Shown here: piece by piece, positions 2,630-61,266 of the stretch
Layout of the letters: every line of letters starts with the position of its first letter
Numbering within the stretch: the first letter of the stretch is position 1
The notes under the pieces: generated by a model
Databases searched by the model: none
Seen by the model: only the letters and a program-made list of their open reading frames with translations
What the model was told of the DNA's origin: nothing
Position numbers and translations under genes: made by a program
From: a phage
Sequence record: PZ543597.1
Length of the DNA: 64,000 bases
Reading direction: 5' to 3' (one strand)

Positions 2630-4687
2630 ATGGAACTTATTACAGAATTATTTGACGGCGCTTCGGCGCCGGTTGTTAACTTAAATCCTAAGCATAAAAT
2701 ACCTCAAATTTTTGCTATTCAAGCCGGTGAAGAAAGCGTGCTTCCTGGATTTAGATTTTGTACATACACCTCTGGTGGTGATACAAATAAAAACGTTAAG
2801 CCAGGCGATAAAATGATGCATATCGTAATGATAGGTGTTAATGAGAAACTATCATTAGTTAAACTTAGAAACTTGGGTGGAAATCCAATTGGTGTCATTA
2901 ATGCCGTTTTTGATACTGCTCTTCAAACAATGAAACAATATAAAATTGACGCATGCTTATTCCGCGTACTAAAGAGTAAAACAAATGGTGCAGCTCGTCA
3001 AATGCAAGTTATTGCCGACCGTTTAGTACGTACTAAAGGAGCAGGTCGATATGTTCTTTTAAAGGAAATCTGGGATTACGATAAAAAGTACGCATATATT
3101 ATGGTTTACCGTAAAAATGCCAATTTAGAAGACATTCCAGGTGTACCTCCTATTTCAACTGAGTTATTCACAAAAGTTGAATCAAAGGTTGGCGATGTTT
3201 ATGTAGATGTTAAAACGGGTAATGCTGTTCCTAAAGCTGTCGCTGTTGCCGCTTCTATTGCTTTAGAAAATGATAAGCGCACGGATCAAGCTGTTATTCA
3301 GAAAACTAAAATTAGTCGTCGATTAGCAGCACAAGCTCAATATTCTACTGTCGATGCTTCACTTCAGGGTGATAGCTTCGCTGCTAAGAAATATCAAGAG
3401 TTTGAATCTAAAGTTCCGGTATATAAAGCAGAAGGATCAATGAATTCTGGCGTTATTCAGATTGGTTCAAACTTCAGCAAAGGAGCTATCGGTGGTATGA
3501 GAAGTGCTTCTCGTTTTAAATCTAACGATTATGAACTAGAAAGCTTCCGAAATCATATTGCATTGGCCCATGCACGTTTACGTGATCCATCTATTAAGTT
3601 ACAGAGCGATATAACATATCAAGGTTCTCAGGAATATTTAAAGAATAAAGAATTTTTTGATTATAAAACTGATAAAATTTTAAGCGATCTTGCTGACATT
3701 AATATTTCTAATAGCTTTGATGTTATTAAGAAAATTATCAATGATTTAGTTAAAGGTTCTAAAGCCACGCCAGACGAAAAGGTAGCTATTATTCAATTTG
3801 TCATGAATGGCATTTATAAATTGATTAATGAATCTGCTGCTCAGGCATATGAATACGCAAGCACCGAAGTAACTCCAAAAGGATTAACTCAGGCTGAGTC
3901 TGATGTAATTGAAGATTATTGTGCAGATTCATATGTTGAAATGAACTCATTCCTCTTGGGTAAACCAGATTCTACCCGTGAAGAATATATGGAACGAGCT
4001 ATTAAACACATCGAGACAATGGATTCTGCCTTTGCCAAAGGTTCAGTTCTTCCTCCAGGAACTACGCTTTATCGTGGACAAGAAGTTACCTTTAAAACTT
4101 TACGTCATAATATTGAAAATAAAATGTTCTATTTCAAGAACTTCGTATCCACATCACTTAAACCAAATATCTTCGGTGAGCATGGTAAAAACTATATGGC
4201 TCTAGATGATTCCGGTGCAGTATTTTCTGGTGAAGGAGAAGGTTCAGTTGACGCAGAAGATTTGATGCATATGGGCAGTCACTCTGCTTATGCGAATGAA
4301 GATGCTGAAACTAGCGTGGGTATGGTAATTAAAGGAGCTGAGCGAATCAAAGTTATCGTTCCAGGTCATTTATCAGGATTTCCATCAGAAGCTGAAGTTA
4401 TTTTACCGCGTGGAATTTTGCTGAAGATTAATAAAGTGAGTACGTACATGATGAAAGAAACTGCTTATAACAAGTATCTAATCGAAGGCACAATCGTTCC
4501 TCCTTCTGAACAATTAGAAGAATCGGTATATGATGGCGACCATCTAATGGAAACTGGTGAAGTTCGTCCAATGGCTGGATTTAATCAATTCCTTGTAGAA
4601 GAATCAAAAGAAGAGGAAAACGAAGTTTCTCAAATCTTGGCTTCTTTGGTTAACATCAACGGAATGTCTAAAAAGTTCAAAATGTAG
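2630..4687 (+). CDS. Alt paralogue, ADP-ribosyltransferase with divergent central region
   Basis: 685-aa ORF 3 nt after alt; shares N-terminus (MELITELFD, CTYTSGGDTN, KQYKIDAC, GRYVLLKE) and C-terminal motifs (TLYRGQ, NFVSTSL, EAEVILPRG); residues ~230-400 unrelated to copy 1. Confidence 0.85.
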   Translation: MELITELFDGASAPVVNLNPKHKIPQIFAIQAGEESVLPGFRFCTYTSGGDTNKNVKPGDKMMHIVMIGVNEKLSLVKLRNLGGNPIGVINAVFDTALQTMKQYKIDACLFRVLKSKTNGAARQMQVIADRLVRTKGAGRYVLLKEIWDYDKKYAYIMVYRKNANLEDIPGVPPISTELFTKVESKVGDVYVDVKTGNAVPKAVAVAASIALENDKRTDQAVIQKTKISRRLAAQAQYSTVDASLQGDSFAAKKYQEFESKVPVYKAEGSMNSGVIQIGSNFSKGAIGGMRSASRFKSNDYELESFRNHIALAHARLRDPSIKLQSDITYQGSQEYLKNKEFFDYKTDKILSDLADINISNSFDVIKKIINDLVKGSKATPDEKVAIIQFVMNGIYKLINESAAQAYEYASTEVTPKGLTQAESDVIEDYCADSYVEMNSFLLGKPDSTREEYMERAIKHIETMDSAFAKGSVLPPGTTLYRGQEVTFKTLRHNIENKMFYFKNFVSTSLKPNIFGEHGKNYMALDDSGAVFSGEGEGSVDAEDLMHMGSHSAYANEDAETSVGMVIKGAERIKVIVPGHLSGFPSEAEVILPRGILLKINKVSTYMMKETAYNKYLIEGTIVPPSEQLEESVYDGDHLMETGEVRPMAGFNQFLVEESKEEENEVSQILASLVNINGMSKKFKM

Positions 4688-56080: not shown

Positions 56081-56644
56081 ATGAAAACCTATGCCGAATT
56101 TTTAACCGAAGCAGCAAAATTACCATCTGAAGCAGATCTTACTAAAGTATTCTTCCAATTGGACCCAAAAGACCGCGGCGATTTTCTTAAGTGGAAAGCT
56201 AAAGCTATTGAAATGTACAACATCGATAATAGTTCTTTTACAATGAGTCAAGAAAATAAATTCAATAAAGCATTTTTCAAAATTTCTAAGAAATTGGCAT
56301 CTGGCGCTCAGGTTCCTAAATCTGTGTTAGCTACTCCTGAACGCGCACCTGTTAAAATTTCTAAGAATATGTTCGACACTAAAAAATACGTTAATGCTTT
56401 GAATAAAGCTCTTGATGCATTGGATGATGCAAAGAAGGCAGCCCGCGATCTTCAAGACGTGTACACCGATTTTGACCGCAAAACTAAAGGTTCTATTTCA
56501 AATAGCGAACGCAATAGTGTAAGTGTTTATTCTGATAGCCTTGATGTTCTTGGCGATGCGTATACTGAAATTAAAAATCGTATTAACACTGCATCTAAGC
56601 TAAAAGCTGCTGCAGAAGCTATAATAAGTAAACTAGGTAAATAA
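56081..56644 (+). CDS. internal-protein-like head protein with capsid-targeting leader (MKTYAEFLTEA), IPIII-sized
   Basis: 187-aa ORF; leader MKTYAEFLTEA; SD aaggat. Confidence 0.75.
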   Translation: MKTYAEFLTEAAKLPSEADLTKVFFQLDPKDRGDFLKWKAKAIEMYNIDNSSFTMSQENKFNKAFFKISKKLASGAQVPKSVLATPERAPVKISKNMFDTKKYVNALNKALDALDDAKKAARDLQDVYTDFDRKTKGSISNSERNSVSVYSDSLDVLGDAYTEIKNRINTASKLKAAAEAIISKLGK

Positions 56645-57595: not shown

Positions 57596-58189
57596 ATGAA
57601 CACACTGAAGAAAATTGTTGAGTTTATTCGCACTAAACTTGGTTCTGCTATGGCTAAAAATCTATCTGTTGAAGAACAGTATACTGCTGCAGCAGCAAAA
57701 CTACTTGATAAAATTAAAGATCTAAAAACTGCTTCTATTAAATCTATTAATGAAGAAAAACGTATTCGTGAACTTGTTATCGAAAAGAATCGACAGGCCG
57801 AATCAAAAGAGCGTGAAATTCGTAAACTTCTTTCCGAAGGTCAAGATGTAACAATGCATGCTAAACTCGGTTTACTATATCGCCGAACAGCTGAGCAGTT
57901 GACTACTAAAGCTGACGGTTATGCTGAAATGCGAATTGAAATCGCCAAGAAAGTAGTTGAGTTAGATGATGCTCGTCAAGAACTTGCAGTTAAATTGGAA
58001 TATATCCGTGAAACTCGTGCAGCAAATGCCCTTGGAATTAGTACTGCCGATGATGTAGTTGAAATCGCAGCGCTGACTAAGGTTGATATTGAAGATACCC
58101 TTGCTCGAGTTGAAACCTTTAACGGTAATATTTCCGGGGTTGAAACTACCTCTGCCGATGTCCAGGAATATATTAATTCTCTGAAATAA
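57596..58189 (+). CDS. coiled-coil protein, possible PspA/IM30-like
   Basis: 197-aa ORF, heptad-rich, charged; loose resemblance to the E. coli PspA helical pattern from memory; not verified. Confidence 0.6.
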
Positions 58190-58194
58190 TGATA

Positions 58195-58215
58195 AGGGGC
58201 TTCGGCCCCTATTAC
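58195..58215 (+). terminator. probable terminator hairpin
   Basis: GGGGC-TTCG-GCCCC hairpin after the stop; weak T-run. Confidence 0.5.
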
Positions 58216-58230
58216 TTGGAGTAAATAGGA

Positions 58231-58836
58231 ATGAAAATGCAAAGTGATTTCAATTCAATGTTTGAAGAGTTCCAAAGACAGGTTGATGTTCCAGATCAAT
58301 TATTAAATGCTCTTAAACGTATGGCAGAAGGACGTAATTACTATTGGGGGTCTTCATACGAAACTGATGAAAGTCTTTCTGGATTTTATAAAGGTAAAAA
58401 GTCTTTAATACGTCCTGGAATACTCATTAAAAGTATTGAATCAATTCATTCATTGACGTGTGATTTTGATGTTGAATTTACTGATTTCATTTCTCCTGAA
58501 TGGACAGTTTGTTATTTAAATGACGATTATGATTATCTTGGCGTTTATAGTTTAAGTGACGCATGGTTTAAACGTAATTTACAAAAGTCAAATTTGTTCT
58601 ATATTGATACTACGGTAAAATTTCAGGGAAAGAAATATTTCTTTACTCTTATAGTTGATTCTGAAACGAAGCATGAGAATAAACGTATTCTTAGTAAAAA
58701 GAATATCTTAACTATTGTTGATGATCTTTTTGATAAATTCGTAGAAAATCCCAATTTTGAAAGCGATTTATTACTAGAAAAATTTGTTAAGGAATGTAGA
58801 GAATATGTCAAAACCATCACTATACCTTCCAAGTAA
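58231..58836 (+). CDS. hypothetical protein (first member of the C-terminal F-V-K-E-C-R junction family)
   Basis: 201-aa ORF; C-terminus EKFVKECREYV. Confidence 0.6.
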   Translation: MKMQSDFNSMFEEFQRQVDVPDQLLNALKRMAEGRNYYWGSSYETDESLSGFYKGKKSLIRPGILIKSIESIHSLTCDFDVEFTDFISPEWTVCYLNDDYDYLGVYSLSDAWFKRNLQKSNLFYIDTTVKFQGKKYFFTLIVDSETKHENKRILSKKNILTIVDDLFDKFVENPNFESDLLLEKFVKECREYVKTITIPSK

Positions 58837-59197
58837 ACCGTTGAAGTATGAATTAAAGCGCCAGCTAATTCCTACTGATGTATTAATAGGTCCTGTTATA
58901 CTCATATCATTTGTAATTCTATTGATTATTGGAGGTGTTTTAGATGTTATGACTGATATTGATTCTGGCGAAATACTTGTGTTAATGCTAATTCTTCCAT
59001 TAATAGTTCCACTTTTATTAGTACCTGTAAATTGGGTAGGATACTGGTATCAAGGAAGACATTATCGTAAACGTGTACGCGAATGGAAAGCTCAGTGTAA
59101 AAAGATTAAAAAGGAACACCAGTTTAAACTTGCCGCGTATGAATTTGATGAAATTATGAAATTTGTTAAGGAATCACGATGCAAAAGCCAAAACTAA
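58805..59197 (+). CDS. small two-TM membrane protein (paralogue family)
   Basis: start placed at internal ATG (MSKPSLYLP...); two hydrophobic segments; C-terminus FVKESRCKSQN. Confidence 0.5.
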   Translation: MSKPSLYLPSKPLKYELKRQLIPTDVLIGPVILISFVILLIIGGVLDVMTDIDSGEILVLMLILPLIVPLLLVPVNWVGYWYQGRHYRKRVREWKAQCKKIKKEHQFKLAAYEFDEIMKFVKESRCKSQN

Positions 59198-59541
59198 ATA
59201 AAGTCAAATATTCGTTTTCTGAGTCATTTTTAATTTTTGCTGTGGCGTTGGCTGCAGCTCTTGCGGGTAGTCTTTTTGGATTGTTAATTGACTGTCTTAT
59301 TTTAAACATTGACGGCACAGTAAATATAATAGAAGTTTGGAGTGAACTTCACTATACCAAAATTATTTCATTGTTTTCATTTTTTGGTATTATATTATAT
59401 TTTCATTATGATAATTTTAAAATAAATTGGCAAAGAAAAAAGGATTACAAAATACAATTAAAGGAATATAATAACTACATGTCTTATATTGAAAATGAAT
59501 CAATGAAAGAGTTTGTGAGTGATTGCAGGAAAATCAAATGA
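59179..59541 (+). CDS. small two-TM membrane protein (paralogue family)
   Basis: 120-aa ORF; two hydrophobic segments; C-terminus EFVSDCRKIK; SD aagga. Confidence 0.55.
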   Translation: MQKPKLNKVKYSFSESFLIFAVALAAALAGSLFGLLIDCLILNIDGTVNIIEVWSELHYTKIISLFSFFGIILYFHYDNFKINWQRKKDYKIQLKEYNNYMSYIENESMKEFVSDCRKIK

Positions 59542-60026
59542 TTTTAAAAACTCGCTGGTATGATTTAGATGATGGGGACGATAGCATTTCAGTTGATAGA
59601 GTTGACTGGAATGGCTGTTCCGAAGATATGAAAAATTTGCTGATTAGGGAGTTTAGAATGGGATATCAACCAGTTAAGCCATCTACTGCAACAGATGATA
59701 AATTCGTGTGTATTCATAATGGTCGCGCTAAATTAACGAACGCTGATTGGTTCACAGATAAAATTATGATTCTGTGGTACATTATTAGTTTTCCTGTGAC
59801 ATCATTTGTATTTTGCTTCTTTGGAGAAAGTCCAGTAGGCAGAACGGGAGATTGGATTCTTTTAATCATACTTGTTAATATTTTTACAGCAGCAGTACTA
59901 TCAGGAATATGGTGCGTGTTCATTGAAATGCCATGGCGTTTACGTAGGCAGCAAAAGATTTTTGATGAAAAGAAATATACTCAAAATTTAAATAACTTTA
60001 TCACTGAATGCAGGAAATTAAAATGA
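59538..60026 (+). CDS. small two-TM membrane protein (paralogue family)
   Basis: start placed at internal ATG (MILKTRWYDL...) with SD aggaaa; two hydrophobic segments; C-terminus FITECRKLK. Confidence 0.55.
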   Translation: MILKTRWYDLDDGDDSISVDRVDWNGCSEDMKNLLIREFRMGYQPVKPSTATDDKFVCIHNGRAKLTNADWFTDKIMILWYIISFPVTSFVFCFFGESPVGRTGDWILLIILVNIFTAAVLSGIWCVFIEMPWRLRRQQKIFDEKKYTQNLNNFITECRKLK

Positions 60027-60463
60027 AAACATTATCAGCTGGTATTATCTTTATGACAGAAGATAAAGATTTATTCATGGGACGGGTTACTGGTTCTCGT
60101 AAGCCTGGAATGATGGCACATCGCTGGGATATTCCAAAGGGCCGTGTAGAAAATTCTGATTTAAACGCACTAGATGCAGCACGAAGAGAATGTTTAGAAG
60201 AGACTGGTTTTAGCAATTATAATCCAGACCTTCTAGAAGACCTAGGTGTATTTAAATATTCTAGTAATAAAGACTTACAGTTATTTTATTATACGATTCC
60301 AGTAGAGCATGAGATGTTTAGAAATTGCCATTGCGAGTCTTATTTTGAAAATAAAGATGGTGTTATGATTCCAGAGATGGATGCTTTTGCTCTTATTCCT
60401 CGTACTCAGTGGCAATATGTGATGGGTCCTTCACTTTACCGAATAATGAACAGCCTCTTTTAA
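60023..60463 (+). CDS. nudE: Nudix hydrolase NudE
   Basis: Nudix box GRVENSDLNALDAARRECLEETGF (G-x5-E-x7-REUxEExGU); immediately upstream of e as in T4; start at ATG with SD aggaaa. Confidence 0.85.
   Translation: MKTLSAGIIFMTEDKDLFMGRVTGSRKPGMMAHRWDIPKGRVENSDLNALDAARRECLEETGFSNYNPDLLEDLGVFKYSSNKDLQLFYYTIPVEHEMFRNCHCESYFENKDGVMIPEMDAFALIPRTQWQYVMGPSLYRIMNSLF

Positions 60464-61266
<803 letters not shown>

Follow-up and report, generated by a model that had tools for sequence, protein, structure and literature searches.

A short conserved C-terminal peptide, encoded over Shine-Dalgarno sequences, on the adjacent genes e.5, e.4, e.3 and e.2 of a Tequatrovirus

The stretch of phage DNA analysed here (sequence record PZ543597.1; 64,000 nucleotides (nt), hereafter the window) carries four small genes between e.6 and nudE/e, namely e.5, e.4, e.3 and e.2. 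Their products share a short C-terminal peptide, and the codons for this peptide contain the Shine-Dalgarno sequence (SD) of the following gene, or its beginning (Table 1). DNA from 58100 to 60500 matches about 500 Tequatrovirus/T4-like records at 90-97% identity, with 93.4% for T4 itself, and on this similarity we assign the window to Tequatrovirus. The gene order e.6, e.5, e.4, e.3, e.2, nudE on the + strand is that of annotated T4; the minus-strand open reading frames (ORFs) listed for the region are all short and without support. About half of T4 genes lack an assigned function, e.2 to e.5 included. The proteins e.5 to e.2 are 82-94% identical to their T4 counterparts (UniProt P39223, P39222, P32274 and P32273) and gave whole-profile PHROG matches to families 2607 (e.5, expect value (E) 1e-107), 2604 (e.4, E 1e-70), 2330 (e.3, E 4e-59) and 2203 (e.2, E 1e-78). 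Existing annotation describes them as "conserved hypothetical" or "predicted membrane protein", that is, as four unrelated proteins in separate PHROG and Pfam families.

Table 1. Features of the e.6 to e region (positions in the window; aa, amino acids)
Feature	Position	Strand	Length	Remarks
e.6	57596-58189	+	197 aa	neighbour 5' of the array
Stem-loop AGGGGC-TTCG-GCCCCT	58195-58210	+	16 nt	UUCG loop; G+C-rich; between e.6 and e.5
e.5	58231-58836	+	201 aa	soluble, no hydrophobic segment (hydropathy); ends ...EKFVKECREYVKTITIPSK / ...LLLEKFVKECREYVKTITIPSK, then stop
e.5 tail motif F-V-K-E-C-R	58783-58800	+		contains SD for e.4
SD for e.4, AAGGAA	58789-58794	+		10 nt from ATG 58805
e.4	58805-59197	+	130 aa	predicted membrane protein; hydrophobic segments 26-46 and 57-84; acidic loop; basic C-tail, net +9; ends ...MKFVKESRCKSQN / ...DEIMKFVKESRCKSQN, then stop
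e.4 tail motif F-V-K-E-S-R	59162-59179	+		followed by C-K-S-Q-N and stop; contains SD for e.3
SD for e.3, AAGGAA	59168-59173	+		5 nt from ATG 59179
e.3	59179-59541	+	120 aa	predicted membrane protein; hydrophobic segments 16-37 and 62-77; acidic loop; basic C-tail; ends ...KEFVSDCRKIK / ...ESMKEFVSDCRKIK, then stop
e.3 tail motif F-V-S-D-C-R	59512-59529	+		followed by K-I-K and stop; contains start of SD for e.2
SD for e.2, AGGAAA	59527-59532	+		ATGA stop/start overlap 59538-59541
e.2	59538-60026	+	162 aa	acidic N-terminal domain of 75 aa; hydrophobic segments 76-96 and 106-129; basic C-tail; ends ...NNFITECRKLK / ...NLNNFITECRKLK, then stop
e.2 tail motif F-I-T-E-C-R	59997-60014	+		followed by K-L-K and stop; contains start of SD for nudE
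SD for nudE, AGGAAA	60012-60017	+		ATGA stop/start overlap 60023-60026
nudE (T4 e.1)	60023-60463	+	146 aa	Nudix hydrolase, Pfam NUDIX E 1.7e-13; final gene of the block; likelier of two starts
e (lysozyme)	60500-60988	+	162 aa

A preliminary description of this DNA, made from the letters alone, had noted the same C-terminal motif on the four consecutive genes. All tails and junction strings that it quoted were found in place, with two qualifications. In e.4, e.3 and e.2 the motif stands at the gene end, but in e.5 the residues FVKECR precede the stop by 11 codons. In e.4, Ser replaces the Cys of the other three tails, and a Cys follows two residues further on. In a six-frame translation of the window, the pattern F[IV]x[DE][CS]R occurred four times, on each occasion at one of these C-termini, compared with 0.42 matches expected and a mean of 0.41 in shuffled sequence. 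Widening the scan to the parts of T4 beyond the window (170.6 kb in total, a whole T4-type genome) added just two matches, both in frames that are not ORFs. When the last 20 aa of 84 ORFs were scored all against all (3486 pairs), e.3/e.2 ranked first, e.5/e.2 third, e.5/e.3 sixth and e.5/e.4 eleventh, which places four of the six possible pairs within the top eleven. At the DNA level, an exact repeat of 16/16 nt (AAATTTGTTAAGGAAT) links the tail of e.5 (58780) to that of e.4 (59159); a second repeat, 30 nt long and of 80% identity, links the tails of e.3 (59512) and e.2 (59997).

Four short C-termini might also be alike by accident in an A+T-rich genome, the outcome that the preliminary description had named as refuting it. 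Pairwise BLASTP E-values are no better than 0.007-0.1, and the definition of the motif was post hoc. Against accident stand the number of matches, their exclusive position at the C-termini of adjacent genes, the absence of the motif from every other real gene genome-wide, and its retention in orthologues from three other genera and in two additional genes. Because the tail is conserved in other genera, we regard accidental similarity as refuted; together with the motif counts and the tail ranking, this conservation leaves it a vanishingly small probability.

Word-indexed homologue searches returned close relatives only; RB69ORF133c and the Kanagawavirus members were uncovered by searching outward from Dhakavirus e.2. 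The genes e.5 (by its tblastn distribution), e.4 and e.3 are limited to Tequatrovirus and Mosigvirus, and e.2 extends to Dhakavirus and Kanagawavirus. In Mosigvirus (MM02, RB69), e.5 ends in ...QFIMECREYVKANPIHAK, e.4 in ...EFVKEIRCKSLNS and e.3 in ...NFIKECRK, each followed by the stop. An unrelated 101-aa gene comes after e.3 in this genus, and e.2 sits elsewhere in the region, ending in ...RFITECRNLR and followed by a 78-aa gene. Dhakavirus has e.2 alone, which ends in ...SFIEECRK before the same 78-aa gene. RB69ORF133c, a protein of 101 aa with two hydrophobic segments, ends in NFIKECRGK / ...NLENFIKECRGK and stop. In Kanagawavirus Q7622, an e.2-like protein (...KFVKGCRNGRRS / ...EFDKFVKGCRNGRRS, then stop) directly precedes gp135, a protein of 106 aa with two transmembrane (TM) segments that ends in DFVKGCRNGRN / ...LTDFVKGCRNGRN and stop and lies directly before nudE; at both Kanagawavirus junctions the next ATG is embedded in the codons for R-N-G. 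In every occurrence among all T4-type loci fetched, the relaxed motif is located at most 11 codons from a stop. The genes that come after a tail are e.4, e.3, e.2, nudE, the 78-aa gene (Dhakavirus, RB69), the 101-aa gene (Mosigvirus) and ORF132c (RB69), and the tail is conserved independently of the identity of the downstream gene. Genes bearing a tail number one in Dhakavirus, two in Kanagawavirus, four in Tequatrovirus and five in Mosigvirus, a variation that fits gain by duplication.

The tail DNA had also been described as doubling as the SD and overlapping start of the next gene, and this was borne out by duplex energies with the 16S 3' end of -4.3 to -6.1 kcal/mol and a spacing of 5-10 nt. 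At the four junctions the SD core is UAAGGA or AGGA, inside the 3' end of the upstream ORF, and the next start codon follows 5-10 nt past the SD, at or before the stop of the upstream gene. The overlaps amount to 32 nt (e.5/e.4), 19 nt (e.4/e.3) and 4 nt (ATGA; e.3/e.2 and e.2/nudE). Each tail carries an SD, but this falls on the K-E codons in e.5 and e.4 and on the R-K codons in e.3 and e.2. Elsewhere, the SD is provided by GAG-GAA (E-E) in Dhakavirus e.2, AAA-GGA (K-G) in Kanagawavirus and CGA-GGA-AAA (R-G-K) in RB69ORF133c. The dense packing of the block from e.5 to nudE is very ordinary for T4-type phages. In the window, 21 of 44 neighbouring + strand ORF pairs overlap or sit at most 15 nt apart, and in many of these pairs the SD is encoded by the tail of the first gene. 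At the 17 other tight junctions the tails are unrelated to the motif. A 19-nt repeat (local alignment p about 0.01) found just past the start codons at the e.3/e.2 and e.2/nudE junctions was judged to be due to chance, as its copies are read in different frames, each within a conserved protein, and Dhakavirus lacks it.

The junction with nudE also bears on the start of that gene. T4 annotation places it at ATG 60008 (MQEIKMKT...), within tail codons of e.2 (gaATGc); this ATG has no SD, and its duplex free energy (dG) is +1.3. ATG 60023 has AGGA 6 nt upstream in addition to the ATGA overlap with the e.2 stop, and the NudE N-termini of Dhakavirus, RB69 and Kanagawavirus align from this position onward. 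A start at 60023, giving a 146-aa product, thus appears likelier than one at 60008.

Orthologues from Tequatrovirus and from Mosigvirus or Dhakavirus are 31-55% identical overall, yet within each family alignment the columns of the tail do not vary. Codon alignments revealed that the residues F, E, C, R and K persist through synonymous changes, including AGG to CGT, AGG to AGA and CGA to AGA for Arg, TGC to TGT for Cys, ATC to ATT for Ile and TTT to TTC for Phe. The motif Arg alone is encoded by AGA, AGG, CGA and CGT. Synonymous change at kept residues suggests selection on the amino acids of the tail, and we conclude from these alignments that the motif is held by selection at the protein level, and neither by recent copying of DNA nor by the ribosome-binding site (RBS) alone.

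The latter alternative deserves consideration, since tails whose peptide had no function of its own could still be alike solely from encoding an SD, an A/U-rich leader and a start. Translational enhancers are U-rich, and so is the TTT-RTT directly 5' of the SD. The SD lies within the tail at every junction, and other tight junctions of the window encode it in a tail as well (...FEAGK and ...SKGE). In Kanagawavirus, the change of GAA to GGA is radical for the peptide (Glu to Gly) but retains a purine-rich SD, AAAGGA, and at that position the RNA constraint may dominate. It is also established that an SD inside the upstream gene of an overlapping pair constrains the upstream C-terminus (Huber et al. 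2019, PMC6728339). However, an SD does not require F, C or R, and the peptide is the same whether the SD occupies K-E or R-K. The use of four codons for Arg and of two each for Cys, Phe and Ile locates the variation at synonymous sites; the 17 other tight junctions have tails of unrelated sequence, and genome-wide no further real gene has the motif. An origin of the similarity in the RBS alone is therefore distinctly unlikely. Rather, the junction is constrained twice, by the peptide and by the RBS, neither being sufficient alone, which accounts for its being the best-conserved part of these fast-evolving genes. In line with expectation for dual coding, the part of e.5 that overlaps e.4 comprises its most conserved nucleotides (0.87-0.90, compared with 0.61 overall).

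We also considered whether the junction DNA is a patch of homology for swapping, duplicating or deleting cassettes, or for gene conversion, similar to the PeSL elements of T4-type phages. The repeats between the tails would suit such a role, and both the downstream genes and the copy number vary between genera at the same junction. Local homogenisation is hinted at by the identity of the two Kanagawavirus tails (FVKGCRNGR) and by a K-[IL]-K ending that is common to e.3 and e.2 of Tequatrovirus and absent from the Mosigvirus orthologues; PeSL-mediated shuffling is documented for T4-type phages (PMC2839356). Yet the repeats are very short (16-30 nt), the DNA of the e.5 and e.4 tails is not identical in Mosigvirus, and the tails group by gene across genera (ECREYVK in e.5, FVKExRCKS in e.4), which indicates vertical descent. 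No PeSL-type promoter or stem-loop was found at the junctions; a promoter scan gave 19 promoter-like sites, not above the background of 14.8 expected. Finally, a scan of IMG/VR for the motif plus ATGA (TTYRTNNNNGARTGYMGNAAATGA) yielded 52 stretches, among which the e.2 and e.3 families alone were real, indicating that the junction is not a widespread mobile module. Recombination at the junctions may contribute, but as the main explanation it is as unlikely as the RBS alone. Of the other IMG/VR matches, about 20 represent a conserved non-coding stretch (...GAGGAATGCCGNAAATGA) that has no connection with the phage motif and lies, in related elements some 52 kb long, directly 5' of a parA-like gene (MTRQATTYVIGNFKGGVGKT); the remainder were short or frame-broken.

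The preliminary description further regarded the four genes as paralogues, three of them encoding small membrane proteins with two TM segments. Hydropathy and charge support two predicted segments in e.4, e.3 and e.2. Every membrane member has two uncharged segments, a loop that is short and acidic, and a basic C-tail with a net charge of +1 to +9, and hydropathy together with the positive-inside rule predicts an N-in/C-in orientation with the tail in the cytoplasm. Profile comparisons linked e.3 to e.4 (E 3e-5 over 37 tail columns), e.3 to e.2 (E 1e-4 over 14 columns, tail only), e.3 and e.2 to ORF133c (E 1.5e-5 over 18 columns and E 8e-5 over 13 columns, respectively), and the e.2 family to Kanagawavirus gp135 (E 2e-4 over 87 columns, spanning the hairpin). 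In addition, e.3 matches the e.4 family PHROG 2604 weakly (E 0.0056), and the N-terminus M-[SQ]-K-P-x-L is invariant in both the e.4 and the e.3 families. For e.4, e.3 and e.2, the claim of paralogy thus stands as likely in view of the two-TM layout and the weak profile similarity. We infer that the hairpin proteins arose by old duplications followed by strong divergence, and that a genus has one, two, three or four of them.

Paralogy did not hold for e.5, a soluble orphan that has the tail alone in common with its neighbours. Comparison of the e.5 and e.4 profiles was not significant, and hhalign aligned only the 7-residue tail of e.5 (E 0.089). An exhaustive phmmer search of 1.84 billion representatives returned six matches for e.5, consisting of its own clusters, fragments and one weakly matching repetitive protein of 1007 aa. 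By these comparisons, e.5 is an unrelated soluble protein that bears the same tail, and not a paralogue of the hairpin proteins.

A stretch inside e.4, W-K-A-Q-C-K-K-I-K (aa 94-102; 59084-59110, + strand), resembles the termini of e.3 and e.2. Its W, Q, C and K are invariant across the e.4 family, and its alignment to the e.3 and e.2 tails by BLASTP and hhalign was not significant. The e.4 protein may consist of a hairpin, an old tail and a 28-aa extension that ends in a second, e.5-like tail, a composition that lacks statistical support.

Translational coupling of the genes had also been supposed. The ATGA overlaps at e.3/e.2 and e.2/nudE have the geometry of termination-reinitiation; those of 32 nt (e.5/e.4) and 19 nt (e.4/e.3) do not. 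RNA folds of 70 nt at the four junctions were no more stable than those of shuffled sequences (z -0.30 to +1.12), so that nothing would block independent initiation at the downstream starts. The two ATGA junctions could plausibly be coupled, and at the 32-nt and 19-nt overlaps it appears likelier that translation initiates in the ordinary way on an unstructured SD. In T4 infection, e.5, e.4, e.3, e.2 and nudE are all represented by early RNA according to RNA-seq, and mass spectrometry places e.5 and e.4 in the early, e.2 and nudE in the middle and e.3 in the late protein class (PMC9697503, supplementary files 4 and 6). All four proteins are accordingly real and expressed, without strict co-accumulation.

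These results bear on the stronger proposal that the array consists of four paralogous cassettes that arose by tandem duplication, each with its own tail, RBS and start, and that are obligatorily coupled. The likeness of e.4, e.3 and e.2 in layout and weakly in profile, the M-x-K-P-x-L N-terminus common to e.4 and e.3, the ATGA overlap at two junctions and the different copy numbers among genera would all be accounted for. But e.5 shares the tail only, the similarity between e.4 and e.2 is not significant, the 32-nt and 19-nt overlaps misfit termination-reinitiation geometry, the starts are not masked by RNA structure, and the T4 proteins accumulate in different temporal classes. We consider this proposal improbable.

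The explanation that we favour, and judge probable as a whole, combines an old C-terminal peptide under amino-acid selection with SD-supplying codons, diverged hairpin duplicates and a cytoplasmic docking role of the tail. The tail, with a consensus of approximately h-x-x-F-[IV]-x-[E/D/G]-C-R-[K/N/E], marks, across the Tevenvirinae, small predicted inner-membrane proteins encoded just 5' of nudE (e.2, e.3, e.4, RB69ORF133c and gp135), together with the soluble e.5. Its purine-rich codons serve as the SD of whichever gene comes next, and the tight packing would lead to roughly co-ordinated translation from one early transcript. One hairpin-plus-tail gene would have given rise, by duplication and divergence, to e.4, e.3, the membrane half of e.2 and the additional copies seen in other genera, and e.5 would have acquired the tail or converged on it. 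In the membrane members, TM2 may continue into the cytoplasm as an unbroken helix that ends in the tail, with F, I/V and C turned to one side and basic residues after them. In the spacing h-x-x-F-[IV]-x-x-C, the hydrophobic residues stand at i, i+3, i+4 and i+7 and so share one helical face, and AlphaFold2 (AF2) models the tail as helical in both e.5 and e.2, continuous with TM2 in the latter, at low confidence (predicted local distance difference test (pLDDT) scores of 42.6 and 48.1).

Such a tail might act as a common docking element: early in infection, on the inner face of the membrane, these proteins would bind one another or a single partner that they share. This is suggested by its predicted cytoplasmic location, its conservation independent of the downstream gene and its presence on a soluble neighbour; we hold this role to be possible, if doubtful. 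More specifically, the tail could be an address or docking tag, analogous at the C-terminus to the capsid targeting sequence of T4, that joins e.5 with e.4, e.3 and e.2 in an early inner-membrane assembly or on one host target. A metal or disulfide contact shared by these proteins might involve the conserved Cys. We regard this version as unlikely. If true, it would represent an unrecognised early membrane machine of T4, for example one that excludes superinfecting phages or counters host defences.

Several observations weigh against the favoured explanation. The tail is not uniform: e.4 has Ser or Ile at the position of the Cys and Kanagawavirus has Gly at that of the Glu, which leaves F and R as the only universal residues. 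Homology of the gene bodies is marginal, and comparison of the e.4 and e.2 profiles gave no significant match. The hydrophobic moments of the tails (0.53-0.71) are individually not significant, with a fraction of 0.05-0.42 of shuffles equal or higher, and given the AF2 confidence there is little firm basis for the helix or for its amphipathic face. The different accumulation classes do not favour a complex of fixed stoichiometry or strict coupling. Furthermore, e.2 is dispensable at least in laboratory T4, in which it is frameshifted.

The frameshift in laboratory T4 (strain "wild", KJ477684) splits e.2 into an annotated 102-aa ORF and a 63-aa remnant that keeps TM2 and the tail; PHROGs 35263 and 35580 correspond to these two halves. 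In the window and in nearly all relatives, e.2 is intact (162 aa).

Two other functions of the tail were considered and rejected. Part of the motif, [IV]-x-E, is similar to the T4 prohead-protease site, but e.3 has Asp and Kanagawavirus Gly at the relevant position, and these are early, non-virion proteins. CaaX-like lipidation was dismissed because the number of residues after the Cys varies (two, four or more). Searches of Pfam, NCBIfam and PADLOC produced nothing above threshold for e.5 to e.2, and their PHROG families are without function or labelled only "membrane protein". NCBI records that name several relatives of e.3 or e.4 "sulfurtransferase" and one relative "DNA primase" are unsupported by NCBIfam and Pfam and look like propagated errors.

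Short terminal peptides on neighbouring, dissimilar phage proteins have a precedent in T4. The capsid targeting sequence, an N-terminal MKTYQEFIAE-type peptide on IPI, IPII, IPIII and Alt, directs these proteins into the prohead and is removed by cleavage. The tail described here is comparable in being short, terminal and shared among neighbours, but it is C-terminal and found on early membrane and cytoplasmic proteins. T4 Imm and the class II holins are small inner-membrane proteins with two TM segments, an N-in/C-in orientation and a charged C-tail. In size, in having two hydrophobic segments and in their predicted basic cytoplasmic C-terminus, e.4, e.3 and e.2 are alike; unlike them, they match no family of described function in Pfam, PHROG, NCBIfam or PADLOC. 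Their early rather than late RNA makes it unlikely that they are holins.

With respect to the junctions, the array resembles termination-reinitiation pairs (PMC6728339) in its co-directional genes, in the SD within the upstream ORF and in the ATGA at e.3/e.2 and e.2/nudE. It differs in that the constrained C-terminus is also a conserved peptide common to several genes, and in that two junctions overlap by 19 and 32 nt. With the PeSLs described in 2010 (PMC2839356) it has in common short conserved sequences at the borders of non-essential genes, a variable region and neighbours that differ between related phages. PeSLs, however, are intergenic promoter-plus-terminator units, whereas the junctions here are coding and have no intergenic space, no promoter signal above background and no stem-loop.

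The shared tail adds modestly to a kind of arrangement that is already known. The searchable literature, to which access was limited, gave no description of the motif, and in the literature reachable the tail that unites e.2, e.3, e.4, e.5, RB69ORF133c and Kanagawavirus gp135 appears to be previously undescribed. It ties four adjacent uncharacterised early proteins to relatives in three other genera and offers a cheap experimental handle on them. It also provides a clean natural example of one short sequence selected at two levels, as a protein motif and as an RBS, which is relevant to the recoding or refactoring of phage genomes. The likely start of nudE is corrected as well.

A second, unrelated array of small genes, absent from the window, shares the C-terminus G-x-W-[VFY]-x-S-S-x-x-C in Mosigvirus MM02 (3731-4525) and Dhakavirus (125-573). 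In the MM02 array, TAAGGAA(t/a)ca(t/a)tATG follows the tail, and the combination of shared tail and junction thus recurs in these variable regions.

On its 5' side, the dense block from e.5 to nudE is limited by the stable stem-loop between e.6 and e.5. It has no clear T-run on the + strand; the annotation of Mosigvirus MM02 calls its equivalent a terminator. Past nudE, the DNA directly 5' of the lysozyme gene e contains a strong SD, AGGAGG (dG -11.5), and two late-promoter boxes of sequence TATAAATA, at 60466-60473 and 60479-60486. Gene e is known to be expressed late from its own promoters, which the boxes fit. Two ORFs of the window (56081-56644 and 60970-61266) open with MKTY[AS]EFL of the capsid-targeting type, as internal head proteins do. 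In the interval from e to denV, a single gene of this type is present in the window, where T4 has ipIII and ipII; the Dhakavirus loci have two to four in varying order.

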